Assembly: GCA_023261505.1 (NCBI GenBank)
Contig: JAHFOV010000002.1
Coordinates: 14,136-78,135 of the forward strand
Source: Planctomycetota bacterium
GTDB lineage: Bacteria; Planctomycetota; Brocadiia; Brocadiales; Bathyanammoxibiaceae
DNA length: 64,000 nucleotides
Reading direction: 5' to 3'
Shown here one piece after another: positions 150 through 47,512 of the stretch; the first letter of the stretch is position 1, and each line of letters opens with the position of its first letter. Below the pieces are notes generated by a model that worked only from the letters and a program-made list of their open reading frames with translations, did no database searches and was not told the DNA's origin. A program made the translations under genes and the position numbers.

Positions 150-1286
150 ATGTCTCCCAAAATAAAAAATCTCCTCCCCCCAGGTAATTACTTCTTTGAA
201 GGCAATCAGGCCTGTGCTGAGGCGGCGCTTGCGGCCGGGTGCAGGTTCTTCGCAGGCTATCCTATCTCCCCGTCTAGTGAGATACTTGAGAGGCTCTCCT
301 GGCGGCTCCCAGAGGTGGGAGGGGTGTTCATCCAGATGGAGGATGAGATCGCCTCCATTGCGGCAGTAATCGGGGCGGTGTGGGCAGGGGCTAAGGCAAT
401 GACGGCCACTAGCGGGCCGGGCCTCAGCCTAATGCTAGAAAATATTGGCTACGCTATCATTACGGAGACTCCCTGCGTCGTAGTCGACGTCCAGAGGGCC
501 GGCCCTTCCACAGGACAGGCTACCAGACCCTACGATGGGGATATTATGCAGGTCAAGTGGGGTTCAAGTGGGGATTATCAGATTATTGCCCTCGCCCCCT
601 GGTCTGTTCAGGAGATGTACGACCTCACCATTCAGGCCTTCAACCTGGCAGAACTATATCGGGTGCCTGTCTTTGTTATGGGTGATGCGGCCTTGGCCCA
701 CCTGAGGGAGAGTTGCCGTATTCCCGAAGAGGTGGAGATAGTGGGGCGTAAAAAGGCAAGCGGCGTTGCTCATTTTGGGACCGATGAGCTTTCTGGTGTA
801 CCCCCAATGGCCAGCTTCGGAGAGGGGGAGGGGTTAATTATCACTGGTTCCACGCACGATGCCCTCGGCTACCGCAGAACCCAGGACTCCGATATACAAC
901 AAAAATTAGTGAACAGGCTTAACGAGAAGATTCTTTCTAACGTGGGCGAGATTATAGAAACAGAGGAATATTTCTTGGAAGGGGCCGATGTGGCGGTGGT
1001 CGCTTATGGGATAGTGGCCAGGGCAGCCCTGGCCGCAGTCAAGGAGGCCCGCCTGAGGGGGATAAAGATAGGATTGCTCAGGCTCAAGACCCTCTGGCCC
1101 TTCCCCGAGGAAAAAATAAGAGCCTTAGAAGCCAAAAAGATTGTAGTCCCCGAGCTTAACCGGGGTCAACTAGTGCGGGAGGTAGAGAGGGTGGCACAGG
1201 CAGAAGTAATATCTGTGAACAGGGTGGACGGAGAGATTATGAGGCCGGGGGAAATCGTGGAGGCGATAAAAGGGGTTAGGGACTAG
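150..1286 (+). CDS. 2-oxoacid:ferredoxin oxidoreductase, alpha subunit
   Basis: 378-aa ORF. 'GNQACAEAALAAGCRFFAGYPISPSSEI' and 'TATSGPGLSLMLE' are OFOR alpha signatures. Beta and gamma genes follow. Confidence 0.85.
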   Translation: MSPKIKNLLPPGNYFFEGNQACAEAALAAGCRFFAGYPISPSSEILERLSWRLPEVGGVFIQMEDEIASIAAVIGAVWAGAKAMTATSGPGLSLMLENIGYAIITETPCVVVDVQRAGPSTGQATRPYDGDIMQVKWGSSGDYQIIALAPWSVQEMYDLTIQAFNLAELYRVPVFVMGDAALAHLRESCRIPEEVEIVGRKKASGVAHFGTDELSGVPPMASFGEGEGLIITGSTHDALGYRRTQDSDIQQKLVNRLNEKILSNVGEIIETEEYFLEGADVAVVAYGIVARAALAAVKEARLRGIKIGLLRLKTLWPFPEEKIRALEAKKIVVPELNRGQLVREVERVAQAEVISVNRVDGEIMRPGEIVEAIKGVRD

Positions 1287-1322
1287 GGATTAGGGGTTAG
1301 TAGAAAAGATGAAGAGAGCGGA

Positions 1323-2120
1323 ATGAGTGAAAAGAAGGGAAAGGAAATGGAAGCCACCTGGAAAAAATACCTAAGAAAAGAGACCCTGCCCCTACCATTT
1401 TGCCCGGGCTGTGGGCATGGGATAGTGCTTTCTGCTATCCTTAGGGCCATTGAGGCTTCAGGGATAGATATAAAGGACATGCTCTTTGTCTCGGGGATAG
1501 GCTGTGCTGGCTGGATTCCAAGTCCACACATAAGGGCTGATACCATGCACGTTACCCATGGTCGCCCCATAGCCTTTGCCACAGGGGCCAAACTCTTTAA
1601 CCCCAGGCTTAAGGTCATGGTAGTGAGTGGTGACGGAGACCTGGCCTCCATCGGTGGAAATCACCTTATTCATGCGGCAAGGCGGGATATTGATATGGTG
1701 GTGGTGTGTGCCAACAATGAGATATACGGTATGACTGGCGGGCAGGTCTCCCCCACTACCGGACTAGGAGTCAAGACGACAACGACGTTAGCGGGGAATA
1801 TAGAGCCACCACTAGATTTATGTAAGCTGGTGGAGGCGGCCGGGGCAAGCTATGTGGCGAGGTCAACTGTCTTTCATCTGGAACACCTTATTAGTCTTCT
1901 TAAAAGGGCACTAAATCTTAAGGGCTTTTCATTTATAGACGCCTTATCGCCATGCCCTACACAGTATGGAAGGCGGAACCTCTACGCCTCAGCAGCGGAA
2001 CAGTTAAAAGACCTGGAGAAGAGGTGCATCTTGCTGCAAGAGGCCAGCGCTGCACCTCCGGAGACGCTGAAGGATAAGGTTATCATAGGAGAGTTTGTCC
2101 TTAGAGACAGTAAGCAGTAG
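1323..2120 (+). CDS. 2-oxoacid:ferredoxin oxidoreductase, beta (TPP-binding) subunit
   Basis: 'FCPGCGHG' cluster cysteines, 'SGIGC' and the 'VVSGDGDLASIGGNH' TPP motif. Confidence 0.85.
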   Translation: MSEKKGKEMEATWKKYLRKETLPLPFCPGCGHGIVLSAILRAIEASGIDIKDMLFVSGIGCAGWIPSPHIRADTMHVTHGRPIAFATGAKLFNPRLKVMVVSGDGDLASIGGNHLIHAARRDIDMVVVCANNEIYGMTGGQVSPTTGLGVKTTTTLAGNIEPPLDLCKLVEAAGASYVARSTVFHLEHLISLLKRALNLKGFSFIDALSPCPTQYGRRNLYASAAEQLKDLEKRCILLQEASAAPPETLKDKVIIGEFVLRDSKQ

Positions 2121-2767: not shown

Positions 2768-4091
2768 GAAATTTCCTTTGATAAAGGTAAAGCCTCCGGG
2801 ACCGGAGGCCAGGGTTCTACTAGAAAAGGATGCAAAATATATCTCGCCGTCCTCGAGCAGGGCCTATCCACTAGTGGTTAAGCGTGCCCAGGGGGCCATG
2901 GTGGAGGATGTGGACGGGAATCGTTATCTGGATTTTACTGCTGGTGTGGCAGTTACTAACACATGCCATTGTTCTCCTGAGGTGGTGAAGGCAATCTGCG
3001 ACCAGGCGAGGGAACTTTTGCACATGTCCGGCGCAGATTTCTTTAATCCATTACAGATAGAATTGGCCGAAAAACTTAGCGAACTTTGCCCTAGCCCATC
3101 TCCTAAGCGGGTATTCTTTAGTAACTCGGGGGCAGAGTCTGTCGAGGCTGCCATAAAGCTAGTCAGACACCGTACAGGGCGTCCTTACATCATTGCCTTT
3201 ACTGGCGCCTTTCATGGGCGTACCATGGGTGCGCTCTCCATTACTGCAAGCAGGCCCATACACAAGAAGGGTTTCTCACCGCTGGTTCCTGGAGTAATCC
3301 ATGTCCCTTATGCCTACTGCTACCGATGCCCTTATGGGGTAGCTCACCCAAGGGAGGAACTGGCCTGCGTAGAGTGGATAGAGGAAGAATTATTTAAAAC
3401 CTATGTGCCACCTGAAGAGGTGGCTGCAGTATTTGTTGAACCTATCCAGGGGGAAGGGGGTTACATAGTCCCACCAAAGGCCTTTCTGAAGGATTTGTCA
3501 GACTTATGCAGGAGGTATGGTATCCTTCTTGTGGCTGACGAGGTGCAATCGGGGATGGGCAGAACTGGGAAGATGTTTGCTATTGAGCACTTTGAGGTAG
3601 AACCGGATGTAATATGCCTGGCCAAGGGTATTGCCTCGGGACTGCCTCTAGGGGCGACCATAGCCCGGCAGGAATTGATGGAATGGCCCCCCGGTTCTCA
3701 TGCTAGCACCTTTGGGGGGAACCCCGTGAGCTGTAAAGCGGCCCTAGCTACACTGGAACTCTTGAAGGGTGGTTTAGTGGCCAATGCGGCAGTTGTGGGA
3801 GATTATCTCTTGAAGGAATTGGAAGGTCTTTACAATAATCATCCAATCATGGGCGAGGTGAGGGGCAAGGGGTTAATGATTGGTATAGAACTGGTAAAGG
3901 ACAGGGATACCAAAGAAAGGGCCTCAGAGGAAAGGGATAAGATTGTGCAGAGGGCCTTTGAGAAGGGGCTTCTCCTATTAGGTTGTGGCAAGAACTCTAT
4001 CCGTTTCGCACCACCCCTGATTATCACCAAAAAGGATGCGGATACTGCGTTAAATATCCTTGAAGAGGTGCTGAGGGAAATAGAGGGATGA
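2760..4091 (+). CDS. class III (GabT-like) PLP aminotransferase
   Basis: 'SNSGAESVEAAIKL', 'DEVQSGMGRTGKMFA' and the PLP-lysine context 'LAKGIASGLPLGA'. The start overlaps the gamma-subunit stop (ATGTTTGA). Confidence 0.85.
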   Translation: MFEKFPLIKVKPPGPEARVLLEKDAKYISPSSSRAYPLVVKRAQGAMVEDVDGNRYLDFTAGVAVTNTCHCSPEVVKAICDQARELLHMSGADFFNPLQIELAEKLSELCPSPSPKRVFFSNSGAESVEAAIKLVRHRTGRPYIIAFTGAFHGRTMGALSITASRPIHKKGFSPLVPGVIHVPYAYCYRCPYGVAHPREELACVEWIEEELFKTYVPPEEVAAVFVEPIQGEGGYIVPPKAFLKDLSDLCRRYGILLVADEVQSGMGRTGKMFAIEHFEVEPDVICLAKGIASGLPLGATIARQELMEWPPGSHASTFGGNPVSCKAALATLELLKGGLVANAAVVGDYLLKELEGLYNNHPIMGEVRGKGLMIGIELVKDRDTKERASEERDKIVQRAFEKGLLLLGCGKNSIRFAPPLIITKKDADTALNILEEVLREIEG

Positions 4092-10580: not shown

Positions 10581-10666
10581 CATTGCAAAAGGAGGAGATT
10601 GCTTTCGCCACAATAAGGGCCTCGCAATGACTGGAAGTGTCGTTGCGAACGGAGCGAACCAATCTC
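10581..10666. repeat. family A palindromic repeat, degenerate double copy
   Basis: 'cattgcaaaaggaggagattgctttcgcc...cctcgcaatgac' plus 'gtcgttgcgaacggagcgaaccaatctc'. Confidence 0.7.
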
Positions 10667-10692
10667 TTATTGTATTTTAAGGAGAAAAAGAC

Positions 10693-14875: not shown

Positions 14876-16423
14876 TCACTCGGCTTCTTCAGGTTTGGGC
14901 AGTAGCTCCCTTTCCCTCATTTCTTCCAATGCCTTGAGTCTCCTGAGTATAGAGGCCTCACTCTGCATACCTATATATTTCTTTAGAAGGTTGGACCAGG
15001 AGATGTATGTGAAGGCATTGGGGTTCATGTGGGCGAGTCCCTTCCTGACGAGGAAGGCGTAGTTTTCCCACATGTATAGGAAATCCCGCTCTATGCGGCT
15101 GGGGTTGCCCTCCTTCGCCCAGAACTCACCATAGAAGCCTCCCAGTGTATCCGGCCATTTTTCCTCCACAGGGGCCGGGGCTTTTGGTCTTTCTTCAGGC
15201 ATTGGAAAAAGGGCCTTCTCCTCATAGAGTTTCTTGAGTAATCCATAGGATTCCTTGACATAGGCGAAGACCTGGTCTGAGGCAAGGTCCATGGAGGTGA
15301 GGTATTCCTTGGAAAATCTTAAGGAATGGCACTGTACGCAGGTCTCTATCCAGGCAAGCCTCCTCTGCGTCAGCTCTGGATTATCACTAATGTATTTACT
15401 GGGCGGAAGGTCCTTAAAGATGTTGTTGTAGAAAAGGACATCTCCTTCACCCATTATGGACTTCCTTACCATATTGTGAGAATACTCTCCCTTGTAATAC
15501 ATATGACAGTAGGCACAGGTCGGTGCTGGGTACTGGGCTTCTTTTAAGGGTTTGTCCCAATCCCACTTTGAACCCTGGGTAGTGTAGACAGTCCCGTGCT
15601 TCGAATCTCGATAATACTCAATATCGGGGTGGTCTGGACCGTTGTGGCAGGTAGCGCAGGCCTCCGGCCTTCTTGCTTCTGCAGCCTTAAACGAATGGCG
15701 GGTGTGACAGCTGTCGCATTTGTGCTGGATGTTGTGGCACATGTCACATCCCTGAACTACATTCTTGTCTGTGGCTGCCCAGATATCTGTCCACAGGTTA
15801 GCATCGTAAGAGCGGGCGTGGCTTTCTCTACCTTCTGGCCAGTCGGGTATGCCATACTTGGCCTCAGAAGAGAATTCTTCTACCTCCTTCGGGTGGCAGA
15901 CGCCGCATGTATCAGGCAAGGGCATTATGAGTTCTTTCCCGTGGTCAAGCTTTTCCGCTCCTGGTTTACCATGGCAATCGATACAACTAACCTGTGCAAG
16001 CTTCCCCCCGAGCGATGCCTTTATCTCCTTTAACCTCTTTTTTTGATATGGCTTAAGTAGTTTAAAGTTACCGTGAGTACTCTCGGCCCAAGACTTTACC
16101 AGTAATGGATTTAGCTTGGAATGACACTCAATGCACTGGTCTCTGCTAAAGACGCCTTGAGGAACGGCTGGAGGCGTGTAGAAATATTGTGGGGCCCAGT
16201 ATTTGTGGGTGGGTATGGGTTCCCAGTACTTTGCATACGGCCCTACACCTTTTCCTACCTCTCCCGGATGGGTAAAGGCCTCCTTTTTTTCTGTTACAAC
16301 CCCGCCGTGGCCGTAGGCTGAGTAAGGCACATCTACGTGAGGCTTTTCCTCCTCTTCTTTGGCAGTGGCAGAAAGACAAAATAAAAATATTGCTAGAATA
16401 CCGACCAGTCCTCTAGGCAACAT
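14876..16423 (-). CDS. octahaem hydroxylamine oxidoreductase (HAO/HZO) family cytochrome c
   Basis: Eight CxxCH motifs (CIECH, CIDCH, CGVCH, CDMCH, CDSCH, CATCH, CAYCH, CVQCH), including the HAO-typical 'CDMCHNIQHKCDSCHTRH'. Signal peptide. The ATG at 16423 follows GAAAGGAAGGA. Confidence 0.85.
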   Translation of the reverse strand: MLPRGLVGILAIFLFCLSATAKEEEEKPHVDVPYSAYGHGGVVTEKKEAFTHPGEVGKGVGPYAKYWEPIPTHKYWAPQYFYTPPAVPQGVFSRDQCIECHSKLNPLLVKSWAESTHGNFKLLKPYQKKRLKEIKASLGGKLAQVSCIDCHGKPGAEKLDHGKELIMPLPDTCGVCHPKEVEEFSSEAKYGIPDWPEGRESHARSYDANLWTDIWAATDKNVVQGCDMCHNIQHKCDSCHTRHSFKAAEARRPEACATCHNGPDHPDIEYYRDSKHGTVYTTQGSKWDWDKPLKEAQYPAPTCAYCHMYYKGEYSHNMVRKSIMGEGDVLFYNNIFKDLPPSKYISDNPELTQRRLAWIETCVQCHSLRFSKEYLTSMDLASDQVFAYVKESYGLLKKLYEEKALFPMPEERPKAPAPVEEKWPDTLGGFYGEFWAKEGNPSRIERDFLYMWENYAFLVRKGLAHMNPNAFTYISWSNLLKKYIGMQSEASILRRLKALEEMRERELLPKPEEAE

Positions 16424-16496
16424 AGTTGTCCTTCCTTTCAACGAAATAAAAAGCTGGGTTGGTGAGAGGATTCTTACCCCCGACCCTCAGAAAAAA

Positions 16497-16595: not shown

Positions 16596-17099
16596 CTATT
16601 CCCACATTTCCTCCTCGCTTTCCGCTTCCCAGCCACCTTCTTCTATAGTTTTCTCAACTGCATTTATGCGGCGCAAAAGTTCATTCACTGCTGTTCTGTC
16701 TACAATTTCTTCTTCTACAATGCCTGCAATGTGGGAAAGAATATTAGCCGCCTCACTGCTTCTCTCTTGTATGGCTTCTATTGCGTTCTGAAAGAAGTTA
16801 TTTGCATTCTCCTTGGATTGGCTGGGGTCCACCTGAAAGGCACCGTCTGGAAGGGACTGATAATAATCATTGATAGCCATTACTTCTTTTACGAGGCTTT
16901 CAACTTTTGTTTCTTTTTTTGGCTCCTTCTTTATTTCCTTTTCCGCCTTTTTTTCAGCTTTTTTTTCTGGCTTGCCCGCCTCTTTTTCTGCACAAGTAAT
17001 ATTTGCGGTAAAGACAAAGAGCGAGAGCAGCTCACATAAAGCAACTATAAAAATTGTGGACTTTGTCCCTGAGTTCCTGCCCAGGCCTCTAAGCAGCAT
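16596..17099 (-). CDS. hypothetical small secreted protein with a Lys/Glu-rich repeat
   Basis: Signal anchor, a 'KPEKKAEKKAEKEIKKEPKKETK' tract and an acidic helical C-terminus. It shares the promoter, 5'UTR and start module of the downstream HAO gene. Confidence 0.5.
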   Translation of the reverse strand: MLLRGLGRNSGTKSTIFIVALCELLSLFVFTANITCAEKEAGKPEKKAEKKAEKEIKKEPKKETKVESLVKEVMAINDYYQSLPDGAFQVDPSQSKENANNFFQNAIEAIQERSSEAANILSHIAGIVEEEIVDRTAVNELLRRINAVEKTIEEGGWEAESEEEMWE

Positions 17100-17197
17100 G
17101 GCTGTCCTTCCTTTCAAAGAAATGGAAATCTGAAGGTAAGCAAATGTATTCTGAACCCTCGGCCCTCCTGCAGAGCCTCAATCATAAAGGATGACAA

Positions 17198-24485: not shown

Positions 24486-26435
24486 ATGGAACTAGAGGAA
24501 AGACTGGAACACCTGCCCACAGGGCCAGGCGTCTATCTTATGAAGGACGCAAAGAGCAAGGTCATTTATGTGGGCAAGGCAAAAAATCTTAAAAATCGGG
24601 CCAAGAGTTACTTCCAGAAGGGGGGCGACGGGAGGTTACTTGTTCAACATCTCCTCAAAAGAGTTGCCGACGTGGATGTAGTTCTCACCGATACGGAAAA
24701 AGAGGCCCTTATCCTTGAAAATAATCTGATAAAACAGTTCAAGCCTCGCTACAATACCATCTTCAGGGACGACAAGACCTATGTAAGTATAAAAATTGAC
24801 CTATCCAAACCTTTTCCCCATCCTCAAATAGTCAGGGAGGTGAAGAAGGACGGGGCCCTATATTTTGGTCCTTACAGCTCCAGCCGGGCCGTAAGGGAAA
24901 CTCTGAGGTTCCTTTACGAGCTTTATCCCATAAGAAAGTGTTCAGAAAGGACATATACAGGAAGAAAGAGGCCGTGCCTGTATTATCAGATGGGTAAATG
25001 CCCTGGACCTTGTGTGGGGCTGGCCGATGATAAGGCCTATAGGGAGATTATTGAGGAGGTTATACTCTTCTTGAAAGGTAAAAGGGAGGAGCTGATAGAG
25101 GCCCTTAGAGAAAAGATGCTAAAGGAGGCCGAGGCAGAAAACTTTGAGAAGGCGGCAGAAATACGGGACCGCATCCAGGCCATCCAACAGACCGTAGAGA
25201 GACAGAAGATACGTTCACCTAGTTTTATAGACCGAGATGTCTTTGGGTATTACCGAGAAGGCAAAGAGATGTCCGTTCAGGCCATGTTTATACGCAACGG
25301 GAACCTGGAAGACATAGCCTCTTACTTTCTCCCCGTACACTACAATAACCCTGAAGAAGTCTTTTCTGCCTTCCTTGTTCAGTTCTACAGTCACAACCGC
25401 TTCATCCCCAGGGAGATACTGATACCCATGGAGGTAGAAGATGCTCCTCTGCTAGAGGAGATATTGACGGAACGAAAGGGGCAGAAGGTTTCCGTGATAT
25501 TCCCCCAAAAGGGTGAGAAAACAAGACTGGTAGAGCTAGCAATGAGGAATGCTGAAAATGCATTCAGGGCGAGACACAGCACACCTCAGCGTCACAAAAT
25601 GATTCTTGAAGGACTTAAAGAGGCCCTCGGTCTAAAAAATTTCCCTCAGAGGATAGAGTGTTTCGACATATCCAATATTGGTGGCAGGCAGGCTGTGGGT
25701 TCTATGGTAACCTTTGAAGGGGGATTGCCTAATAAAAATAGGTACCGCAGATACAAAGTAGAGACGGTTCCCCAGGCAGACGACTTTGCCATGATGGAGG
25801 AAGTCCTAACACGCCGCTACAAGAAGGCCCTTGAAGAAAATTATCTCCCTCAACTGACTATAGTTGATGGGGGCAAGGGGCAGCTTGGGGTGGCCCTAAA
25901 GGTTATGGAAAAGTTAGGGATAAAGGATGTAGACGTCATCGCCCTGGCTAAGGCCAGGAAGGCGATATCTGACTTAGGCGGACGGGGCGTCATTGCTAGC
26001 GAAGCGAAGCAATCTCAAAGATTGTTCGCCAAGGCGAATCTGCCTAAGGCACTACTTCGGGGCTTCGCCTCTCGCAACGACCGGCCATCCGAGCTCCAGG
26101 ATAGGGTGTTCATCCCGTGGAAATCAGAACCAATCCTCCTTCCTACCGATTCGCCAGAACTTCTCCTGCTGGGGAGGATTAGGGACGAGGCTCACCGCTT
26201 TGCCATCACCTACCACAAGAAGCTCCGCCAGAGGCAATTCTATCGTTCACCGCTGGATGAAATCCCAGGTATAGGTCCAGCCAGGAAGGCAAAGCTAATG
26301 AAGTGCTTTGGCAGTATAGAGAACATCCGACAGGCAGGGCTTAAGGATTTAAAAGAGGTTGCTGGATTGCCTGCCAAACAGGCTGAGCTTATATATAACT
26401 ACTTCCATCCTCCAGTTACAGCCTCTAAAACCTGA
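24486..26435 (+). CDS. uvrC: excinuclease ABC subunit C
   Basis: GIY-YIG 'GVYLMKDAKSKVIYVGKAKNLKNR', UVR domain, 'DISNIGG', 'VDGGKGQL', 'IRDEAHRFAI' and a C-terminal HhH. Carries a repeat-derived in-frame insert at about 25989-26082. Confidence 0.9.
   Translation: MELEERLEHLPTGPGVYLMKDAKSKVIYVGKAKNLKNRAKSYFQKGGDGRLLVQHLLKRVADVDVVLTDTEKEALILENNLIKQFKPRYNTIFRDDKTYVSIKIDLSKPFPHPQIVREVKKDGALYFGPYSSSRAVRETLRFLYELYPIRKCSERTYTGRKRPCLYYQMGKCPGPCVGLADDKAYREIIEEVILFLKGKREELIEALREKMLKEAEAENFEKAAEIRDRIQAIQQTVERQKIRSPSFIDRDVFGYYREGKEMSVQAMFIRNGNLEDIASYFLPVHYNNPEEVFSAFLVQFYSHNRFIPREILIPMEVEDAPLLEEILTERKGQKVSVIFPQKGEKTRLVELAMRNAENAFRARHSTPQRHKMILEGLKEALGLKNFPQRIECFDISNIGGRQAVGSMVTFEGGLPNKNRYRRYKVETVPQADDFAMMEEVLTRRYKKALEENYLPQLTIVDGGKGQLGVALKVMEKLGIKDVDVIALAKARKAISDLGGRGVIASEAKQSQRLFAKANLPKALLRGFASRNDRPSELQDRVFIPWKSEPILLPTDSPELLLLGRIRDEAHRFAITYHKKLRQRQFYRSPLDEIPGIGPARKAKLMKCFGSIENIRQAGLKDLKEVAGLPAKQAELIYNYFHPPVTASKT
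25989..26082. repeat. family A palindromic repeat inside the uvrC coding sequence
   Basis: 'gtcattgctagcgaagcgaagcaatctc...cttcggggcttcgcctctcgcaacgac', with the same inner 'ttcgccaaggcgaatc' module as the copy at 4783-4818. Confidence 0.8.
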
Positions 26436-31469: not shown

Positions 31470-32776
31470 TGGAAAAGCTTGTTATTGAGGGCGGAAGGCG
31501 TCTCCACGGTAGGGTTTCAGTTAACGGGGCTAAGAATGCTGCCTTACCCATCATGGCTGCCTGTATACTTACACATGGCATCTCCAGGATAAAGGGCATT
31601 CCTAACATTACTGACGTACGCCTTATGGTGGATTTGCTCCGCCGCCTTGGGTTGACGGTCGAGCGTTTGAAGGACGGAACTCTTGAACTAGCGGTAACAA
31701 GCCCGGGAGAGGTAGTAGCTCCAAATGAATTGGTCAAAGAAATGAGGGCTTCTATCTGTGTTTTGGGCCCACTATTGGGAAGGTGGGGAAGGGCAGAGGT
31801 AGCAAGGCCAGGGGGCTGTGTGATAGGGTATAGGGGCATAGACCTGCACCTAAAAGGGCTGGAGGCACTGGGAGCAAAGATAATTCAGGATAAAGGATAT
31901 ATTATAGCTGAGGGTAGCGATCTTTTTGGAAGAGAACTGCATCTGGCCGGGTCTTTTGGCCCTACAGTCCTTGGTACGGCCAACGTGATGATGGCCGCTT
32001 GCTTGGCAAAAGGCACAACAGTTATAAAGAGCGCAGCCTGCGAGCCGGAGATTCAAGACCTTGCTCACTTCCTCAACTTGGCTGGGGCAAAAATAACAGG
32101 AATAGGCACCAGTTGTCTAGTGATTGAGGGGGTAGAGGAGCTTAGCGGTGTAGAATATGAAATAATTCCAGACAGGATAGAGGTAGGAAGCTTCATGGTG
32201 GCCAGTGCAATAACCCGAGGGAACATCCTCATAGAAAATGTCAGGATGGAACATTTAGGTGCAACGATAGAAAAATTGAGAGAAATAGGGGTGATAGTGG
32301 AAGAAGAAGAAAAAGGGTGCAGGGTAAAAGGAACAGACGAATTGAAAGCCACCTGCATTGGCACCCTTCCTTACCCGGGTTTTGCCACGGACATGCAGCC
32401 TCAGTTTACCTCCCTGCTGAGCATAGCCCAAGGTACTAGCGTTATTACTGAAAAGGTTTTTCCTGATAGGGCTACGCACATTGCCGAGCTTAGTAGAATG
32501 GGGGCGAGCATCACAAAAGAAGGCCCTAATATCATCATTAAGGGTGTACAAAACCTTTCCGGTGCTGAGGTCACGGCAACTGACCTGAGGGCTAGTGCTA
32601 GTTTAATACTGGCAGGGCTCGTAGCCAGGGGTACTACAGAAATTAGAGGCGTTCATCATCTGGACAGAGGTTATGAACACCTGGAAGAGAGGCTAGCTCA
32701 ACTCGGCGCAAAAATAAAGAGGGTGCTGGACCAACCCCTGTTGCATATGCCCAAGCCTGTGGATATGATGACTTAG
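31469..32776 (+). CDS. murA: UDP-N-acetylglucosamine 1-carboxyvinyltransferase
   Basis: 'MEKLVIEGGRRLHGRVSVNGAKNAALPI' and active-site 'RPGGCVIGYRGIDLHL'. The ATG overlaps the prmC TAA (TAATG). The 31280 start in the ORF track is an artefactual extension. Confidence 0.9.
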   Translation: MEKLVIEGGRRLHGRVSVNGAKNAALPIMAACILTHGISRIKGIPNITDVRLMVDLLRRLGLTVERLKDGTLELAVTSPGEVVAPNELVKEMRASICVLGPLLGRWGRAEVARPGGCVIGYRGIDLHLKGLEALGAKIIQDKGYIIAEGSDLFGRELHLAGSFGPTVLGTANVMMAACLAKGTTVIKSAACEPEIQDLAHFLNLAGAKITGIGTSCLVIEGVEELSGVEYEIIPDRIEVGSFMVASAITRGNILIENVRMEHLGATIEKLREIGVIVEEEEKGCRVKGTDELKATCIGTLPYPGFATDMQPQFTSLLSIAQGTSVITEKVFPDRATHIAELSRMGASITKEGPNIIIKGVQNLSGAEVTATDLRASASLILAGLVARGTTEIRGVHHLDRGYEHLEERLAQLGAKIKRVLDQPLLHMPKPVDMMT

Positions 32777-32869
32777 GATTATTGAAGAGTGCCAGTTAGG
32801 CAGTGTTCCTCTATTTAAGTTCCATTTGCATATCTTAAGACCTTTAAGTATAATGCCTTGGGTTAAACT

Positions 32870-34379: not shown

Positions 34380-34877
34380 ATGCAGTTCAAAGTTGGGATA
34401 GGGCAAGACAGTCACCGCTTTGAGGAAAAAGGTAAGAGTAAGCCTCTTATTTTAGGGGGAGTTGAAATACCATGTGAGCTGACATTAATGGGCAATAGTG
34501 ACGCCGATGTAGTTCTCCACGCCCTTTGCAATGCAATATCTGGAATTAGTGGGAAAGTAATACTTGGTCCCCATACAGATAGGTTATGTGAGCAAGGGAT
34601 TACTGATAGCGCCGTATATGTTAGGGAAGCCCTGAAGACATTAAAGGACTATAAAATAGCACATGTAGCAGTGACAATAGAATGTCTAACCCCCAGGATA
34701 GTTCCACACATTGACAAAATGCGATCTAGAATAGCTGAAATCCTTGATATAAAAATCGAAGATGTCGGGATAACCGCTACGAGCGGTGAGGGCCTTACGT
34801 TATTTGGCCAGGGAGCGGGTGTTCAAGCTTTTGTATTAGTTACAGCTATGCAGGAAAAACCAGTAAGTTCCATTTGA
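34380..34877 (+). CDS. ispF: 2-C-methyl-D-erythritol 2,4-cyclodiphosphate synthase
   Basis: 'GIGQDSHRF', 'SDADVVLHAL' and 'TATSGEGL'. Confidence 0.8.
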   Translation: MQFKVGIGQDSHRFEEKGKSKPLILGGVEIPCELTLMGNSDADVVLHALCNAISGISGKVILGPHTDRLCEQGITDSAVYVREALKTLKDYKIAHVAVTIECLTPRIVPHIDKMRSRIAEILDIKIEDVGITATSGEGLTLFGQGAGVQAFVLVTAMQEKPVSSI

Positions 34878-35318: not shown

Positions 35319-36374
35319 GTGAAGCATGAATATGACGTCGTGGTGGTAGGGGCAGGACCCTCCGGGGCTGCTACTGCAAAAGGGCTTAGCCGGAATGGTT
35401 TGAAGGTACTAATAGTAGAGAGAAAGAAGCTCCCCAGGTACAAGATATGCTCCGGGCTAATTAACGAGAAGTCCCAGAAGCTCACCCAGAAACATTTCGG
35501 ACAAATTCCCGATGAATGTTACTGCAGGCCAAAGATAATAAAAGGGGTTCGCCTCTGGGAAAATACTGAAAAACATACCAACTGGCCTTTTGGGGGAAAG
35601 GATGGGGCGCCTAATGTTTGGAGGGCACAGTACGATAAATGGCTGGTGGACCATTCAGGGGCAGAGGTAAGGGATGGGTGCCTGCTTAAGGATTTCAAGG
35701 TTAATAGTAAAGCTATAACCCTTTATTGCCAGGACGAGAGCGAAGGAAGTATTGAAATAAGTTGCAAATATCTCGTGGGAGCAGAAGGATGCCTCTCATC
35801 AATAAGGGCCAAACTGAATCCCAAACTTGAGAGCGAATGCCTCTGGTTCCTTGCCTACCAGAACTATTATGAGGGAGAATGCAGCCTCGACCCCGAATGG
35901 TATCATGGGTTTCTGGACGCAAGTCTCGGAGAGATATACGCCTGGTTCAATGTAAAGGACGATTTCATTATCTTCGGCACCTCCATTAAGCGGGGAGAGA
36001 AGTTTGAACCTTACCTCAAGACTTACACTGAGTTCCTTCAGAAAAACTTTGGATTAAAGCTGGGGAGGCTTGTAAGGAAATCCAGTTGCCTGGGCACAAA
36101 CCTTTGTGCAACTGGGAATTTCTATCTGGGAAGTGGGAACATACTCCTTGTGGGAGAGGCCGCAGGGTTTCTAAACATGTTCGGAGAAGGCATATCCTCT
36201 GCCCTAGCCACCGGACTATTGGCCGCCCAGGCCGTCAACGAAGCTGAATCAGAAAACCCAAACAGACCCGTGCTTGAGATTTACACAGAGCTTACCAGAC
36301 AAGAGCGCCGAGAAACCCTTGCCTCGTGGAAGCTGGCCAACAGGATAGCAGGGAGAAGGCTGTTGCTAGAGTGA
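35319..36374 (+). CDS. FAD-dependent oxidoreductase (geranylgeranyl reductase family-like)
   Basis: 'YDVVVVGAGPSGAATA' dinucleotide fold and 'LLVGEAAGF'. GTG start. Confidence 0.7.
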   Translation: MKHEYDVVVVGAGPSGAATAKGLSRNGLKVLIVERKKLPRYKICSGLINEKSQKLTQKHFGQIPDECYCRPKIIKGVRLWENTEKHTNWPFGGKDGAPNVWRAQYDKWLVDHSGAEVRDGCLLKDFKVNSKAITLYCQDESEGSIEISCKYLVGAEGCLSSIRAKLNPKLESECLWFLAYQNYYEGECSLDPEWYHGFLDASLGEIYAWFNVKDDFIIFGTSIKRGEKFEPYLKTYTEFLQKNFGLKLGRLVRKSSCLGTNLCATGNFYLGSGNILLVGEAAGFLNMFGEGISSALATGLLAAQAVNEAESENPNRPVLEIYTELTRQERRETLASWKLANRIAGRRLLLE

Positions 36375-36527
36375 ACTAGGTAGTAGGCAGTAGGCAGACC
36401 CAGGTCATTGCGAGCGAAGCGAAGCAATCCCATAGGAATGAGATTGCTTCGTCGCTTCGCTCCTCGCAATGACAGAGAGTGGAAGGCCGTCAACAGGATA
36501 GCAGGTAGAAAGCTATTACTAGAATAA
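36326..36527 (+). repeat. 49-bp direct duplication of a gene 3' end flanking inserted repeats
   Basis: 36326-36374 and 36479-36527 are identical at 39 of 49 positions by hand alignment. Both encode W-K-x-x-N-R-I-A-G-R-(R/K)-L-L-L-E-stop. Confidence 0.8.
36404..36473. repeat. family A palindromic repeat, archetypal copy
   Basis: 'gtcattgcgagcgaagcgaagcaatc-ccataggaatgag-attgcttcgtcgcttcgctcctcgcaatgac'. Confidence 0.85.
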
Positions 36528-36529
36528 AG

Positions 36530-36592
36530 CAGGAAGTAGCCGCTTGCTGCTTACTCCCTCCTGTTTACTGTCTACTCGCTACTATCTCCTAT
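36530..36592. repeat. family E right-arm tract; partner left arm at 36378-36397
   Basis: 'ggaagtagccgcttgctgcttactccctcctgtttactgtctactcgctactatc'. Lies between convergent genes. Confidence 0.65.
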
Positions 36593-37489
36593 TTACTGCC
36601 TTTCCGCCTTCCTGAATAGCCCTTTTCTCCTGAGGCCAAGTAACCCCGCCAGCCCAGTGCCAAGTAGAATCAAGGTGGAAGGTTCAGGCGTTGGTTTTGT
36701 GCAGGTATAGTCGTCAAAAACATTCGTACTAACTATTGCTGTGCTTCCCGCAGCGTCACGCTGAGCCCAAGTGAAATTGCTTACCAAAAACCCTTTACCA
36801 CTTGCGTAGTGATCGTTTTCAGCAAAAACTTTTCCAGTGCCTTCACGTTTGGCGTGGATTTGTCCTGTAACAGACACTGAACCCCCGCTACCAAAAAAAC
36901 CCTGCCCTGTATCGGTCGTACTGAATTCAATCATTAACTCATTTGCGAGTGGAGTGAAAAGGAATTTTGTCTTAGGTGGCATAGCACCTGGTTCCCAATT
37001 GAACGACAGCTCGACTGGGCCCTTCCCCACCTTAAGACCGACAGAAACTTTGTCATTGTTCACTTCAACGTTTGGATCTACATCAATAGTCCACTTATCA
37101 GTATAGTCAAAGTCTGCGCATCCTTCATTCTTAACAGAGAATGTCCATGTTTTTGGAAACAAGTTAGCGCCAGGCGCTCCCGGTGGTAGGTTTGGCCTTC
37201 CTGGAACTATTAAAGGCGTGAAAAACGGTGCATCAAGGTTGTAGAATTCTCTAAAATGGAAGTTGTCCCTATGGCTTATAAAGTAAGCATGGGGTTCCAC
37301 TGAAAATAAGTTCAAACGACTATCTACTGTCCAAGTGCCGCCGAAAACTGGAGGTAAAATGCTTCCTGGAACTATATGAGAATGTATATCCTGATGTTTT
37401 ATAGGATGTGCATCACTTATTGAAAAGTGACCAAAAGAAATGTAAAAAATGGTAATTATTAGGAAATAAAATAATTTTTGTAAGCACAT
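36593..37489 (-). CDS. PEP-CTERM sorting-domain secreted protein
   Basis: C-terminus 'PTPEPSTLILLGTGLAGLLGLRRKGLFRK' and an N-terminal signal. The ATG at 37489 lies 7 nt after AAAGGAGGG. Confidence 0.8.
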   Translation of the reverse strand: MCLQKLFYFLIITIFYISFGHFSISDAHPIKHQDIHSHIVPGSILPPVFGGTWTVDSRLNLFSVEPHAYFISHRDNFHFREFYNLDAPFFTPLIVPGRPNLPPGAPGANLFPKTWTFSVKNEGCADFDYTDKWTIDVDPNVEVNNDKVSVGLKVGKGPVELSFNWEPGAMPPKTKFLFTPLANELMIEFSTTDTGQGFFGSGGSVSVTGQIHAKREGTGKVFAENDHYASGKGFLVSNFTWAQRDAAGSTAIVSTNVFDDYTCTKPTPEPSTLILLGTGLAGLLGLRRKGLFRKAERQ

Positions 37490-37791
37490 TGTTTCGCCCT
37501 CCTTTGTGGCGTGCGTCTCAACCACCACTTTATTTAGCACCTTTTTAAAAAGGCAAAGTCGATGTCTAAATCACCTCCTTTCGTATCCTCTTGTCCCAAA
37601 CTAAGATTTACTTTCTAGCTACGAGAAAATTATTCCGTAAAGGTATAGGAAGGGCATCAGTGGCAAGAGTACAACAGTTGTTGGTAGTAAATCAGTAGAA
37701 GTGTGACAGACCCTTGTCGCCACCCAGCAATTTAAGATTCGTCACAAATGACTTTCAATCACCTCCTTTCACATCACTCTGCCAAAAACAA

Positions 37792-37807
37792 AGCACAAGC
37801 TGTGCCA
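37792..37807 (-). promoter_or_regulatory. candidate sigma-54 (-24/-12) promoter upstream of the PEP-CTERM gene
   Basis: The minus strand reads TGGCAC-AGCTT-GTGCT, against the consensus TGGCAC-N5-TTGCW. Lies about 300 nt upstream of the ATG at 37489. Confidence 0.45.
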
Positions 37808-37846
37808 ATCATCCAGGCAAGAAATGATTTTTTGTAACAACTTGCT

Positions 37847-37880
<34 letters not shown>

Positions 37881-37903
37881 TTTCTAATCTCAAGCCAAAA
37901 AGT

Positions 37904-37932
37904 AAAAAGTGTTGATTTTCTCAACACTTTTT
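37904..37932. terminator. bidirectional intrinsic terminator-like hairpin
   Basis: Perfect 12-bp stem 'aaaaagtgttga'/'tcaacacttttt' with loop 'ttttc'. A/T runs flank it on both strands. Confidence 0.6.
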
Positions 37933-38207
37933 TCTCTACCATTTGTAAGATGTTAAAATACAACCTGTTATGAAAGTAGTTAATAGTGGAATTTTCCAGG
38001 AAAGTGGACAATTTTTTTAGAACTTAACGGGCAGAATTCTTTTCCTGGCTGGAAAGAATCTTGCAAAAGGCAAAACTGTTTTAATTAGATTCTTCTCTTC
38101 CCCTTCGCCTTTGGCTCAGGGCTTCGGCTCACTCAGAATGACAAATGGGGGAGGTTAGTTTTGAGGAGGTGTCTACTGAGAATTAAAAGGTTTTCAACAT
38201 AGTGCCT

Positions 38208-39227
38208 CTAGTTTCGCGATAATATGCGGGTCACCTCATCCACCTCAAAGGTTGGAAAAGCCTTTAGCTGGCCGTCTTCTATTAGCTTTAAACCCTTAGT
38301 CTTTTCTGCAAGGCAGCCAATGTCTGCTGCCTGTATGCCCTGTGCCCTTAAGGCTGAAAGCACCTTTTCACACTCTTCCGGAGCCACCGCTATGAGCAGT
38401 GCACCTGAGGCAATAATGCCCAGGGGGTCTAAACCATAATAGGAACAAAGTTCTTGAGTCTCTGAAAAGATAGGTATCCTTTGTTTATCAATTTCGGCTC
38501 CCAGGCTTGCAATTTCTGCCATCTCCTGTATGCCGGTAGCCAAACCCCCTTCTGTGAGGTCATGCATGGCGTGAACCTTTGCCGCTCTAGCGGCTTTAAG
38601 AGCCTCTTTGACCACACTAATCCCTGGGTCAACGAGGAATTCTTGCGCTCTTTTGACGAAACCCTCGCCAAAGTGAGCCCTTAACTCCCCGGACCTTTCC
38701 CTGGCTATGAGGGCTGTACCTTCAATGGCTATACCTTTTGTTAGGATTATCCTATCCCCTGCCCTGGCATTGGTCTTGAGGACGAGTTTATCTCTAGCTA
38801 CCTCGCCCAGCATGTGCCCAACTACTATGGGCCTATCCAGCCCTGGGGTAACTTCTGTATGCCCCCCGCAAAGGGCTACTCCTAATTGTTCTGCGGCCCT
38901 GGACATATCAGCAAAGATAGCCGTTACCAGCTCCTCATCGGTTTTCTTTTCGGGCAGGAGCAGGGTGGCAAGGAACCATTTGGGTTCTGCGCCCAGGGTG
39001 GCTACATCATTGGCATTCATATGTACGGCATACCAGCCTATCATTTCTGTGGCGTAGGTAATGGGGTCGCTCTTGGCCACCAGGTATCTATCCCCCATAT
39101 CAATAACTGCTGCATCCTCGCCTACTGTTGGCCCTATCACTAGACGTGGGTCTCTAACCCCCGTGTACTGCTTTAGGAGTTTGGCAAGGAGTTTTGGGTT
39201 CAGTTTCCCCAGAGGGAGGTTTTTCAT
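38208..39227 (-). CDS. AIR synthase-related (PurM/ThiL/HypE superfamily) protein
   Basis: 'GEDAAVIDMGDRYLVAKSDP' and 'NANDVATLGAEPKWF' are PurM-superfamily motifs. Confidence 0.7.
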   Translation of the reverse strand: MKNLPLGKLNPKLLAKLLKQYTGVRDPRLVIGPTVGEDAAVIDMGDRYLVAKSDPITYATEMIGWYAVHMNANDVATLGAEPKWFLATLLLPEKKTDEELVTAIFADMSRAAEQLGVALCGGHTEVTPGLDRPIVVGHMLGEVARDKLVLKTNARAGDRIILTKGIAIEGTALIARERSGELRAHFGEGFVKRAQEFLVDPGISVVKEALKAARAAKVHAMHDLTEGGLATGIQEMAEIASLGAEIDKQRIPIFSETQELCSYYGLDPLGIIASGALLIAVAPEECEKVLSALRAQGIQAADIGCLAEKTKGLKLIEDGQLKAFPTFEVDEVTRILSRN

Positions 39228-45734: not shown

Positions 45735-46749
45735 TCAGGCCATAGTGATAGCGGCAGAGAGGGCCGGCTTAGGCTTCTTTGCTGGCTATCCCATCACCCC
45801 TGCCTCTGAGATACTTCATGAACTGGTGGGTAGAAAGTACATAAAGGTCATGCAGATGGAGGACGAGATAGCCTCCATAAATGCCTGTATAGGGGCCTCC
45901 CTTGCTGGGCTTAAGGTCATGACGGCTACCAGTGGGCCCGGTTTCTCCCTCATGCAGGAGAGCATAGGGCTAGCCCACATGATGGAAGTCCCTATGGTAA
46001 TAGTAAATGTACAAAGGGTAGGACCCAGCACAGGGATGCCGACCTTCCCCGCCCAAGGTGATATTATTCAGGCAAGGCACGGCAGCCATGGAGACTACTT
46101 CCCTATAATCTTTTATCCCAACTCTGTTGAAGAGATCTACCGACATACATTCAGTGCCTTTAACGCCGCCGAAGAGTCCCTTAGTCCTGTTCTACTCCTC
46201 AGCGATGGCTACATTAGCCACCTGTACGAAACCGTGGAGCTTACGAACTATCCAGTTGTACAGAGGGGCAGACCACCTCTAGGCGCAGGTAACCGTCACT
46301 TTACTGGTCTTACCCATAAGGACTCGTGCCCCGTAACCTCAAGCCCTGAGGTGCACAGAACCCTTCTAGCCCACTTCCAAAAGAAGTGTATGCAGACCTG
46401 CGCAAACTACAACTTTTATGAATATATTGAAAACGACACGGCAGATACCCTTTTGATAGCCTTCGGTGCCCTATCAAGGGCCATTTACAATTTTAAGGAT
46501 AAATATGGCGTTTTCAGGCCCATCAGGCTTTTCCCCATGATAGAAGAATTAAAGGACTTCGCTTCCCGATACGAATACATTGTAGTCCTGGAAATGAACA
46601 CTGGCCAATATTGTTATGAGGTAGAAAGCCTTCTGCACAGAGAGGTGGAGCTACTGGCCCTGCCTGGAGGCAAAATAGACATTAAGGAAATAAGCGACAA
46701 ACTTCAGGAATTAAGACAGGCATCATCTAAACAGGTAACGATAAACTAA
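45709..46749 (+). CDS. 2-oxoacid (probably 2-oxoglutarate):ferredoxin oxidoreductase alpha subunit
   Basis: 'GNQAIVIAAERAGLGFFAGYPITPASEI' and 'TATSGPGFSLMQE'. The 2-oxoglutarate assignment rests only on sucCD/fumarase context. Confidence 0.8.
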   Translation: MSKQLLQGNQAIVIAAERAGLGFFAGYPITPASEILHELVGRKYIKVMQMEDEIASINACIGASLAGLKVMTATSGPGFSLMQESIGLAHMMEVPMVIVNVQRVGPSTGMPTFPAQGDIIQARHGSHGDYFPIIFYPNSVEEIYRHTFSAFNAAEESLSPVLLLSDGYISHLYETVELTNYPVVQRGRPPLGAGNRHFTGLTHKDSCPVTSSPEVHRTLLAHFQKKCMQTCANYNFYEYIENDTADTLLIAFGALSRAIYNFKDKYGVFRPIRLFPMIEELKDFASRYEYIVVLEMNTGQYCYEVESLLHREVELLALPGGKIDIKEISDKLQELRQASSKQVTIN

Positions 46750-46762
46750 GCAGGCGATAAAC

Positions 46763-47512
46763 ATGGAAGACACTATGCGTTTCAAGCGCTTCCTGAAGGA
46801 AGAGAACCTGCCCACCCCATGGTGTCCGGGCTGTGGTAACGGCCAGATTCTTAAGTCAGCATGCCAGGCCTTTGAAGAACTCAATTTTGATAAGCGACAG
46901 GTAGTCATCGTCTCTGGCATAGGATGCGCGGGCAGGAGCGCTGGTTTCTTTGACATGGACTCAGTCCATACTGCCCACGGTAGGGCTATCCCTGTTGCTG
47001 AGGGTATAAAAACCGCCAATGAGAACCTGAAAGTTGTTGTACTGAGCGGAGACGGAGATCTACTGGGCATAGGTGGCAACCATCTCCTTCATGCCACAAG
47101 GCGAAATACCCCCATCTCTATTATCTGCTACTCCAACGAGATATACGGTATGACCGGTGGCCAGGTCTCTCCCACTACCAGACTAAATACCAAGACCGTC
47201 ACCACGCCCGAAGGCAACAAAGACTGCCCTGTCAACGTTCAAGCTATTATCAAGGCCCACAACTGCTTCTATGCAAGAAGTACTACCTTTCATCTAGCAC
47301 ACCTTAAAAAAAGCATTATTGAGGCACTGAGACACCCCGGTCTTTCCTTTGTAGATGTTATATGCCAGTGCATCGTCAATAACGGTCGCCGCGTAGGGTT
47401 CAAAGACGCTTTTGAGATGCTTATGTACTATAAGAACAATTATAAAATTAACGACAATACCGAACTTCTAAAAGAGAACGAGATAGGAATAACCCGATGG
47501 ACTTCAGCGTAG
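46763..47512 (+). CDS. 2-oxoacid:ferredoxin oxidoreductase beta (TPP) subunit
   Basis: 'WCPGCGNG', 'SGIGC' and 'VLSGDGDLLGIGGNH'. Confidence 0.85.
   Translation: MEDTMRFKRFLKEENLPTPWCPGCGNGQILKSACQAFEELNFDKRQVVIVSGIGCAGRSAGFFDMDSVHTAHGRAIPVAEGIKTANENLKVVVLSGDGDLLGIGGNHLLHATRRNTPISIICYSNEIYGMTGGQVSPTTRLNTKTVTTPEGNKDCPVNVQAIIKAHNCFYARSTTFHLAHLKKSIIEALRHPGLSFVDVICQCIVNNGRRVGFKDAFEMLMYYKNNYKINDNTELLKENEIGITRWTSA

Follow-up and report, generated by a model that had tools for sequence, protein, structure and literature searches.

A duplicated gene end around hairpin repeats behind an anammox oxidoreductase gene, a proposed scar of insertion with long target duplication

In the window, that is, the whole stretch of 64 kb of anammox DNA which was analysed here, the last codons of a gene for an FAD-dependent oxidoreductase, its stop codon, and a few nucleotides behind it are present twice, with a short piece of hairpin-forming DNA in between. 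The DNA belongs to an uncultured member of Candidatus Hypogeohydataceae (Brocadiales), contig DBJWYO010000003.1. The structure is best read as an insertion bracketed by a long target duplication which spans the stop codon of the gene. It is a fairly ordinary scar and not a new kind of mobile element. It adds a new case to a kind of scar already known, and tells somewhat more when set beside the similar scars of other anammox loci. How it arose is judged with less confidence: insertion in place, with duplication of the resident target, is tentatively preferred at somewhat short of an even chance.

Extent and Statistics of the Repeat

The direct repeat is 61 nt long with 48 of the 61 positions identical, and its two units are spaced by 153 nt (Table 1). 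In the original prediction the last 15 codons and the stop codon of the oxidoreductase gene had been described as recurring downstream, with 39 of 49 nt identical between 36326–36374 and 36479–36527. Realignment confirmed both the recurrence, with the translations WKLANRIAGRRLLLE and WKAVNRIAGRKLLLE, and this identity. As position 36326 is a G ahead of the TRP codon, the coding part is 36327–36374 versus 36480–36527. Homology extends for 12 nt beyond both stop codons. The local alignment score of the repeat was 70 as compared to a maximum of 34 in 200 shuffles, and the repeat is thus far beyond chance. When all 84 ORF ends in the window were examined for a second copy downstream, only that of the oxidoreductase gene had one (score 28.5; next best 15.5). 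Both copies contain an identical core of 15 nt, CAACAGGATAGCAGG, which is a candidate crossover site if recombination made the repeat. The first 14 nt of this core (CAACAGGATAGCAG) are also identical in both copies of a second locus, L004, which is described below.

The stop codon of the gene is followed by three heptads, the hexamer ACCCAG, a palindrome of the repeat family A, the pentamer AGAGA, and then the second copy. Between the 61-nt copies lie about 92 nt, made up of 1.5 heptads, ACCCAG, the family-A palindrome, and AGAGA. The claim that only a family E arm and a family A palindrome separate the copies therefore holds, with the two short motifs to be added. No ORF was found in this cargo, and a third copy of the gene end, searched for between the PEP-CTERM gene and the AIRS-family gene further downstream, was not found. 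A simple tandem duplication was rejected, as neither heptads nor a palindrome are repeated in the second unit and homology stops after 61 nt.

Table 1: Features around the duplicated gene end and similar scars in other anammox loci. Positions are those of the window, except for L093, where they are those of that locus.
Feature	Positions	Strand	Basis or remarks
FAD-dependent oxidoreductase gene, geranylgeranyl-reductase family, 351 aa	35319–36374	+	ORF, Pfam FAD_binding_3
Copy 1, working gene end: last 15 codons, TGA (36372–36374), 12 nt of spacer	36326–36386	+	amino acids equal those of orthologue C-termini
Identical 15-nt core CAACAGGATAGCAGG in both copies	36338–36352, again 36491–36505	+	alignment
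Heptad ("family E") orphan left arm	36375–36397	+	lacks its own right arm ahead of the palindrome; fold gives no strong partner
Family-A palindrome, 70 nt, termini GTCATTGCGAG ... CTCGCAATGAC, two 3-nt bulges	36404–36473	.	alignment, fold
Copy 2, gene-end relic: WKAVNRIAGRKLLLE* and 12 nt, in no gene	36479–36539	+	repeat alignment, ORF list, homologue C-termini
Small hairpin and long heptad right arm, overlapping the stop of the convergent PEP-CTERM gene	36540–36612	.	fold, duplex energies
Lineage-specific PEP-CTERM protein gene	36593–37489	−	Pfam PEP-CTERM
AIRS-family gene (HypE/SelD/ThiL-like)	38208–39227	−	ancestral convergent neighbour of the FAD gene
Scar in L041 (Scalindua)			cargo: pentapeptide-repeat protein; empty site: L060
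Scar in L048 (Brocadia)			cargo: 952-aa secreted protein; empty site: L059
Scar in L095			nuoN-like 3'-end copies on either side of two tandem ORF104-family members
Scar in L093 (the window's own genome)	655–691, repeated 2884–2917		nuoN-like 3' end; brackets tyrS and a prephenate-dehydratase gene

The structure does not depend on one assembly. An ENA megahit contig deposited under another accession (L090) is identical to the window over 36300–36650, and its sole difference from the window is one CATA unit in the microsatellite at 37848–37879. In addition, three Logan unitigs from two runs span both junctions, with breaks only inside the palindrome. There is no N run at the repeat, and the copies are direct and 79% identical, neither inverted nor identical. 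As the duplication is present in two independent assemblies, it is not an artefact of assembly, which was rejected on the megahit contig together with the unitigs over both junctions. Artefacts of this sort do occur in the material: the loci L025 and L069 carry gene-end duplications with perfect copies on either side of N runs, and these two were left out of the list of scars as scaffold-gap artefacts.

The Oxidoreductase Gene and the Status of Its Two Ends

The product of the gene matches the NCBIfam family GG-red-SF below the cut-off. It has 544 homologues and is kept in every anammox lineage sampled, across the Brocadiales. The C-terminus encoded by copy 1, WKLANRIAGRRLLLE, is identical to that of the closest homologues. 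Copy 2 is contained in no ORF of the window. The case that the second copy is part of another real gene, which had been named as speaking against the original prediction, was checked, and copy 2 was found to belong to no gene. It is derived at positions 7–11 and 32, including a change at L339, a residue invariant in the homologues, and none of the 120 homologues listed ends in WKAV. An origin of copy 2 from a paralogue was rejected: the FAD paralogue of 396 aa which this genome also encodes has no match to it, and neither has the rest of the window. Since copy 2 lies in no ORF, replaces the invariant L339, and is unmatched in the listed homologues, the paralogue, and the window, it is a relic. 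Copy 1 is the working gene end and copy 2 a dead, untranslated, and decaying one.

The ten coding differences between the copies are not evenly spread. Four of them cluster in the motif GCCGTC of copy 2, which is located within an 11-mer identical to 36229–36239 in the interior of the gene and suggests a templated patch. The six differences right of the 15-nt core consist of four synonymous changes, one change from stop to stop, and one from R to K. At the second position of the stop codon the relic has A, like nine of nine orthologues, and the TGA of the working copy is unique. Polarity is ambiguous at three synonymous sites.

Hairpin Repeats around the Copies

Folding of the region 36360–36480, in which the stem is the family-A palindrome, yielded −49.8 kcal/mol (z = −5.1). 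The relic pairs with the right heptad arm at 36545–36612 to form a long imperfect hairpin, and the fold of 36470–36612 yielded −44.9 kcal/mol (z = −2.8). The pairing of this right arm with either copy of the gene end is about equally strong (−30.8 and −28.1 kcal/mol); of seven orthologous ends tested, six paired less well. An assignment of the arm to one of the copies was therefore given up, as folding energies do not discriminate between them. Comparable heptads of the ACAGG type follow the gene in only one of nine orthologous loci compared (L007). Elsewhere in the window heptad arrays form intergenic hairpins.

The palindromes of family A share conserved termini and are found here and there in intergenic spacers. 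Since family-A-like palindromes also lie directly 3' of the stop codon of the same gene in two other genera (L054 and L025), hairpins after this gene are considered ordinary. The original prediction had proposed to look for further repeat copies flanked by duplicated gene ends. In 633 kb of anammox DNA there are 13 other complete palindromes of family A; none has such flanks, and their flank scores do not exceed 9 as compared to 28.5 here. Because similar flanks are absent from all 13, the 61-nt duplication is not the normal way in which family A inserts or spreads. For the same reason a MITE-type transposition of family A was rejected, although terminal repeats are present. The suggestion that the structure reveals how the repeat families spread was accordingly not borne out by the other family-A copies (0/13), and no such link was shown. 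Upstream of the relic in L004 a 9-nt match to a family-A-like terminus (CCTCGCAAT) was seen; extended homology around it is not significant, and the match was set aside. Comparison with Rfam families gave matches at chance level only, and a search of the literature for the termini of the palindrome retrieved only unrelated primer sequences.

Empty Sites and an Accessory Segment in Related Genomes

Another suggestion had been to compare related genomes for empty sites. Such sites, without the duplication or the repeats, were found in related genomes including the closest one. In eight loci (L003, L006, L007, L009, L079, L080, L081, and L097) the oxidoreductase gene is followed by 50–240 nt of hairpins and then by the convergent AIRS-family gene, and none of the eight has a second copy of the gene end. 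Seven of these relatives, all but L081, share only 83–90% protein identity with the window, so that the comparisons are not at strain level; the closest is L097 with 90% identity over 219 aa.

In the window the two genes are separated by an accessory segment of 1.83 kb (36375–38207) which is absent in most close relatives. It contains the hairpins, the relic, the PEP-CTERM gene, and 670 nt with a duplicated ribosome-binding region and the microsatellite. Only three homologues of the PEP-CTERM protein were found among 5.8 billion proteins. The same spacer carries a PIN-domain gene with a small adjacent ORF in L008, possibly a toxin-antitoxin pair. Depending on the lineage, its cargo consists of PEP-CTERM genes (one or two, unrelated to each other or to that of the window), of the PIN-domain gene and its small partner, or of a gene for a small membrane protein. 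The spacer between the oxidoreductase and the AIRS-family genes is a hot spot for accessory genes, and the duplicated gene end dates and locates a rearrangement at this hot spot in an uncultured groundwater anammox lineage.

A second relic of the same gene end is found in L004, a JGI metagenome locus with 84–85% protein identity. There the repeat is 63 nt long with one gap of 1 nt, and its left border is unlike that of the window, 63 as compared to 49 nt before the end of the stop codon. The cargo between the copies is an ORF of 104 aa on the opposite strand, and a PEP-CTERM/CBM96 gene unrelated to that of the window is located directly beyond the relic. An independent assembly (L005) contains the working gene end followed by the ORF104 cargo as in L004, on a contig that stops short of the relic. 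Between relic and working copy the identity is 79% in either lineage, the two relics share 33 of 48 positions with each other, and four-fold-degenerate sites are only 40–52% identical between these lineages. From these three identities the events in the window and in L004 look independent of each other and younger than the split of the lineages.

Similar Scars at Other Gene Ends

A scan of 951 ORF ends in the fetched anammox loci, in which only duplicates of gene ends were looked for, yielded further short relics which are in frame, retain the stop codon, and lie on the far side of inserted DNA (L041, L048, L095, and L093; Table 1). As nothing else was sought, it is partly through ascertainment that these scars are confined to gene ends. 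In L041 and L048 the two copies enclose the cargo, and the original neighbour follows the relic at its original distance. Not every look-alike is a fresh scar: an apparent relic of the aroA end in L007 was rejected, as it is a conserved promoter-like element (TTGCAT-N17-TATAAT) which all relatives have ahead of ffh. Taken together with the four or five scars of this type in other anammox loci, the scar in the window suggests that insertions at duplicated gene ends are a regular route by which single genes are gained.

Search for Mobility Genes

It had further been proposed to look for integrase or recombinase genes associated with the repeats. None was found in the cargo, within 5 kb, or in the 64-kb window. 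Of the 56 ORFs of at least 110 aa in the window, all but those at 14876–16441 and 34380–34877 were scanned, 53 against Pfam (50 of these with a threshold of E ≤ 1e-8) and one against NCBIfam only; no integrase, transposase, reverse transcriptase, or Cas1 was detected in them. A degenerate pattern of the gene end gave no match in viral contigs. A diversity-generating retroelement was also considered and rejected. Five of the ten mismatches are not at adenines of copy 2, no reverse transcriptase was found in the scanned ORFs of the window, and the copy which would have to be the variable one is conserved among orthologues rather than hypervariable.

Origin of the Duplication

The preferred explanation, held at a little less than an even chance, is an insertion in place with long target duplication. 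One old insertion straddling the stop codon would have left the relic downstream, and the 61-nt target, consisting of the last 48 coding nt including the stop codon and 12 nt of spacer, would now be doubled around ordinary hairpin DNA of the kind that follows the gene. The most likely route would be a template switch during repair or replication in the hairpin-rich spacer, a step which we infer together with the origin in place. The growing strand would exit in the heptad arm just past the stop codon, copy heptads and a palindrome from another repeat locus, and re-enter 49 nt upstream of the stop. The upstream copy keeps the gene intact, and the downstream copy now pairs, as the left side of a long hairpin, with the heptad arm behind it. 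It is proposed that scars survive at gene ends because only duplications which include the stop codon keep the gene working.

Several observations argue for such an origin in place. The 61-nt repeat takes in 12 nt of a heptad spacer which is specific to the lineage, both copies fit the same right hairpin arm, and no mobility genes were found in the 54 of 56 large ORFs of the window which were scanned. Close relatives which keep the adjacency of the oxidoreductase and AIRS-family genes have empty sites, the closest, L097, among them. Such scars recur around single accessory genes in anammox loci for which relatives provide empty sites (L041/L060, L048/L059, L004, and L093, the last from the window's own genome). 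The class is moreover documented, including cases of 46-bp repeats over gene 3' ends without mobility genes (PMC2853133). On the other side, an identity of 79% means that the event must be old, yet the frame and the stop codon of the relic are intact. No donor locus for the insert of heptads and palindrome was found in the 64-kb window, and the event would be exceptional for family A, as none of its 13 other copies has a flank duplication. Also to be counted against it is that, to our knowledge, the mechanism of long target duplication has nowhere been established experimentally.

The statistics of coding-like conservation do not decide between this origin and the import of a gene end which is discussed next. 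When the relic is modelled as neutral and the working copy as under selection, neutrality is not rejected for the window (P = 0.07). Taken over six relics coding-like conservation exceeds the neutral expectation (combined P = 0.012), a value biased by the fact that the relics were ascertained by similarity. When substitutions are placed at random, three or fewer amino acid changes together with an intact stop codon are obtained with P = 0.005–0.018. The unique TGA of the working copy next to the orthologue state in the relic counts against an origin in place in that it fits an imported upstream copy equally.

Import of a replacement end, the model of the original prediction, is quite possible and ranks second in probability. 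Here a gene end from a related lineage would have arrived together with the hairpins, either as a small element or cassette or from the homologous locus. Through one crossover within the 15-nt core, site-specific or of the Campbell type, the resident end would have been displaced downstream as the relic. This agrees with the chimeric pattern of the differences, copy 2 being aberrant at invariant residues left of the core and the differences right of it being nearly all synonymous, and with the A at the stop position which copy 2 shares with nine of nine orthologues and which the TGA of copy 1 lacks. An identity of 79% is the usual divergence between lineages in this segment, where four-fold sites are only 40–52% identical, and the P value of 0.005–0.018 for random substitutions points in the same direction. 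The event in L004, with its other borders and cargo and with 33 of 48 positions shared between the relics, fits independent recent origins better than one ancestral event. The palindromes after the stop codon of the gene in other genera make a gene end plus palindrome a plausible donor. Against import, no integrase or recombinase was found in the cargo or the window. With its 153 nt the unit cannot be autonomous and falls short of the size of a plausible circle, and viral contigs lack the pattern of the gene end. A fixed att site would have the same borders in both lineages, and here they differ. In addition, the repeat includes the lineage-specific heptad spacer, copies 1 and 2 pair equally well with the resident right arm, and the fairer model of an origin in place gives P = 0.07 for the coding-like signal of the window.

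The interpretation given in the original prediction stood in part. For the footprint of an integrating element, the topology of working end, short repeat DNA, and displaced second end was recovered, and an element and its integrase were not found. For the replacement of the gene end, the differences right of the core and the A at the stop position speak in favour, while the heptad spacer within the repeat and the fit of both copies to the same arm speak against it. Excision of the unit would be expected to produce, free or as a circle, the junction palindrome-AGAGA-GTGGAAGGCCGT-core-GGAGAAGG.

It is unlikely that the relic came from the right, as the truncated left edge of an imported block of 1.7 kb comprising the relic, the hairpin, the PEP-CTERM gene, and the 670 nt. 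The donor of this block would have carried it downstream of the same gene, and it would have been joined illegitimately at a break provoked by the resident palindrome, with an anchor of homology in the AIRS-family gene. The absence of the whole segment 36375–38207 in close relatives which keep the adjacency of the two genes is compatible with this, as are the mere three homologues of the PEP-CTERM protein, the break in homology 5 nt from the palindrome, and the nature of the spacer as a hot spot for accessory insertions such as the PIN-domain gene of L008. The relic of L004 also directly precedes a PEP-CTERM gene, though an unrelated one. In L041 and L048, however, it is the cargo that is enclosed by the copies, with the relic still at its original distance from the original neighbour, and random illegitimate ends should yield relics of widely varying length. 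No discontinuity is detectable in the flanking genes, in which identity profiles were uninformative on recombination breakpoints. An apparent co-adaptation of the relic to the right arm is matched by an equal fit of copy 1.

A more general proposal is that anammox bacteria have a route, acting in trans or without a dedicated recombinase, which puts accessory genes and hairpin repeats across the stop codons of core genes and supplies or duplicates their last 30–60 nt. This is rather doubtful. If it applied, the 3' ends of genes would be general landing pads, and the 153-nt unit would be a minimal non-autonomous example in which repeat families spread by template switching between heptad arms.

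The chance that the duplication is an artefact or accidental, through mis-assembly at the palindrome, collapsed strain variants, or a scaffold gap, is next to negligible: the artefactual gene-end duplications of L025 and L069 and the breaks of the unitigs within the palindrome lend it some colour, but the copies are direct repeats at 79% identity without an N run, the megahit contig is identical and the unitigs cover both junctions, the alignment score is far above that of shuffles, and an analogous structure exists in L004, whose left junction is also contained in the independent assembly L005.

Relation to Known Systems

Insertion with long target duplication has been described previously (Nobusato et al. 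2000; Furuta, Abe and Kobayashi 2010, NAR, PMC2853133). The published class comprises inserts without mobility genes which are flanked by direct repeats of more than 30 bp corresponding to a single-copy target in genomes free of the insert, with examples of 46-bp repeats which overlap the 3' end of a gene by 15 bp or 2 bp. The published cases concern restriction-modification genes and have near-identical repeats (44/46 and 47/47) (PMC2853133). The structure in the window resembles this class in the length of its repeats (61 nt, more than 30 bp), in the single-copy target in relatives, and in that no mobility gene was found. It differs from the published cases in its cargo of 92 nt of hairpin repeats, in the 79% identity of its repeats, and in that these are nearly all coding. 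The scars reported here tie anammox genomes to a poorly understood class which has been described mainly for restriction-modification genes.

The element e14 and phage 21 integrate at the 3' end of icd in E. coli and supply a replacement gene end, and islands which target tRNA or tmRNA genes follow the same logic. Elements of the e14 and phage 21 type are kilobases long and encode their own integrase. The duplicated end shares with them the order of working end, cargo, and displaced end, the mainly synonymous differences, and the identical core. It is also alike in that the proximal copy reconstitutes the gene, copy 1 encoding the orthologous C-terminus. Unlike them it has a cargo of only about 100 nt, no recombinase was found in the 64-kb window, and the left borders of the two lineages differ (49 as compared to 63 nt).

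A lesson for annotators is that short in-frame gene ends downstream of real genes are to be taken as relics, and that palindromic repeats beside such relics are bystanders and not proof of transposition. Like REP/BIME, Correia, and Rickettsia palindromic elements, family A consists of short palindromes whose termini are conserved and which are dispersed among intergenic spacers. The target duplication of these repeats is none or 2–10 bp, unlike the 61-nt repeat here. A further likeness to the Rickettsia palindromic elements is that family A was found once in frame inside a gene, uvrC.

Gene-End Duplications within and beyond the Window

A second gene-end relic is present in the genome from which the window comes. 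On contig DBJWYO010000010.1 (locus L093) the last 11 codons and the stop of a nuoN-like gene occur twice, 2.2 kb apart, and the two copies, which bracket tyrS and a prephenate-dehydratase gene, are 76–78% identical, differ by one amino-acid change, and retain the stop.

In the window itself, the relic of the FAD oxidoreductase gene end shares the exact 11-mer AGGCCGTCAAC with the interior of the same gene. The four clustered differences of the relic all fall within this 11-mer, which may represent a templated repair patch or may have arisen by chance, the probability of the latter being roughly 0.006 by our own estimate.

Duplicated host-gene 3′ ends also flank members of a small-protein family of 87–109 amino acids in two other anammox loci, L004 and L095. 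These proteins carry coiled-coil repeats of the TERDKTEILTK type and a membrane helix at the C-terminus. With 114 homologues spread over anammox bacteria, Nitrospirota, and Thermodesulfovibrionales, the family has a wide distribution; it corresponds to no Pfam family. Geranylgeranyl-reductase-like FAD genes are its repeated neighbours.

Resemblance to a gene end was also found upstream of ffh, where a promoter-like element (TTGCAT-N17-TATAAT) is conserved in the window and in four other anammox loci (L003, L006, L007, and L079). In all five the element is similar to the 3′ end of aroA, the gene upstream, from which it is separated by a spacer that ranges from about 45 to 600 nt.

The arrangement in the window can be mimicked by assembly. 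Two public metagenome-assembled scaffolds, L025 and L069, contain perfect gene-end duplications, which flank runs of N and are unmerged contig overlaps.

Family-A Palindromes and Other Repeats

In two other anammox genera the orthologous FAD gene is followed, about 15 nt past its stop, by a palindrome resembling family A. Within the window a 93-nt family-A palindrome is located in frame in uvrC. As the RNase H domain match of UvrC covers 197 residues versus a profile of 159 positions, the palindrome appears to be translated as an insert of 31 amino acids, in likeness to the Rickettsia palindromic elements, which are translated inside genes. Two family-A-like half-copies are fused tail to head around TGGAAGT, and a lone right half of a variant (…GCTCACTCAGAATGAC) adjoins the stop of the convergent AIRS gene.

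The PEP-CTERM gene is preceded by two copies of the ribosome-binding or 5′ leader region, and two assemblies differ by one repeat unit in the length of a (CATA)8 microsatellite. A 52-nt repeat of 83% identity spans the beginnings of two neighbouring genes on the minus strand, encoding a multihaem protein of 521 amino acids with many CxxCH motifs and a protein of 173 amino acids, both with the N-terminus MKGRT(T/A)ML.RGL. 2-Oxoacid:ferredoxin oxidoreductase is encoded by two paralogous gene sets (POR_N, TPP_enzyme_C, POR), which are separated by 45 kb and share patches of 73–90% nucleotide identity.

Coordinates of the repeats and genes described
Feature	Locus	Positions
nuoN-like end copies	L093	655-691; 2884-2917
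11-mer, relic	window	36484-36494
11-mer, FAD gene interior	window	36229-36239
Small-protein family	L004	2120-2434
Small-protein family	L095	3610-3894; 4001-4318
Small-protein family	L093	3001-3264
Small-protein family	L096	3001-3330
aroA 3′ end and promoter-like element (listed jointly)	window	32740-32775; 32825-32862
N-flanking duplication	L025	~2550-2650
N-flanking duplication	L069	~3155-3265
Palindrome past FAD gene	L054	2991-3062
Palindrome past FAD gene	L025	2726-2797
uvrC ORF	window	24486-26435
uvrC palindrome	window	25989-26081
Family-A-like half-copies and lone right half (listed jointly)	window	10598-10680; 38086-38142
PEP-CTERM leader copies	window	37569-37605; 37757-37793
(CATA)8	window	37848-37879
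52-nt repeat	window	16405-16456; 17081-17132
Oxidoreductase sets	window	328-2120; 45848-47512
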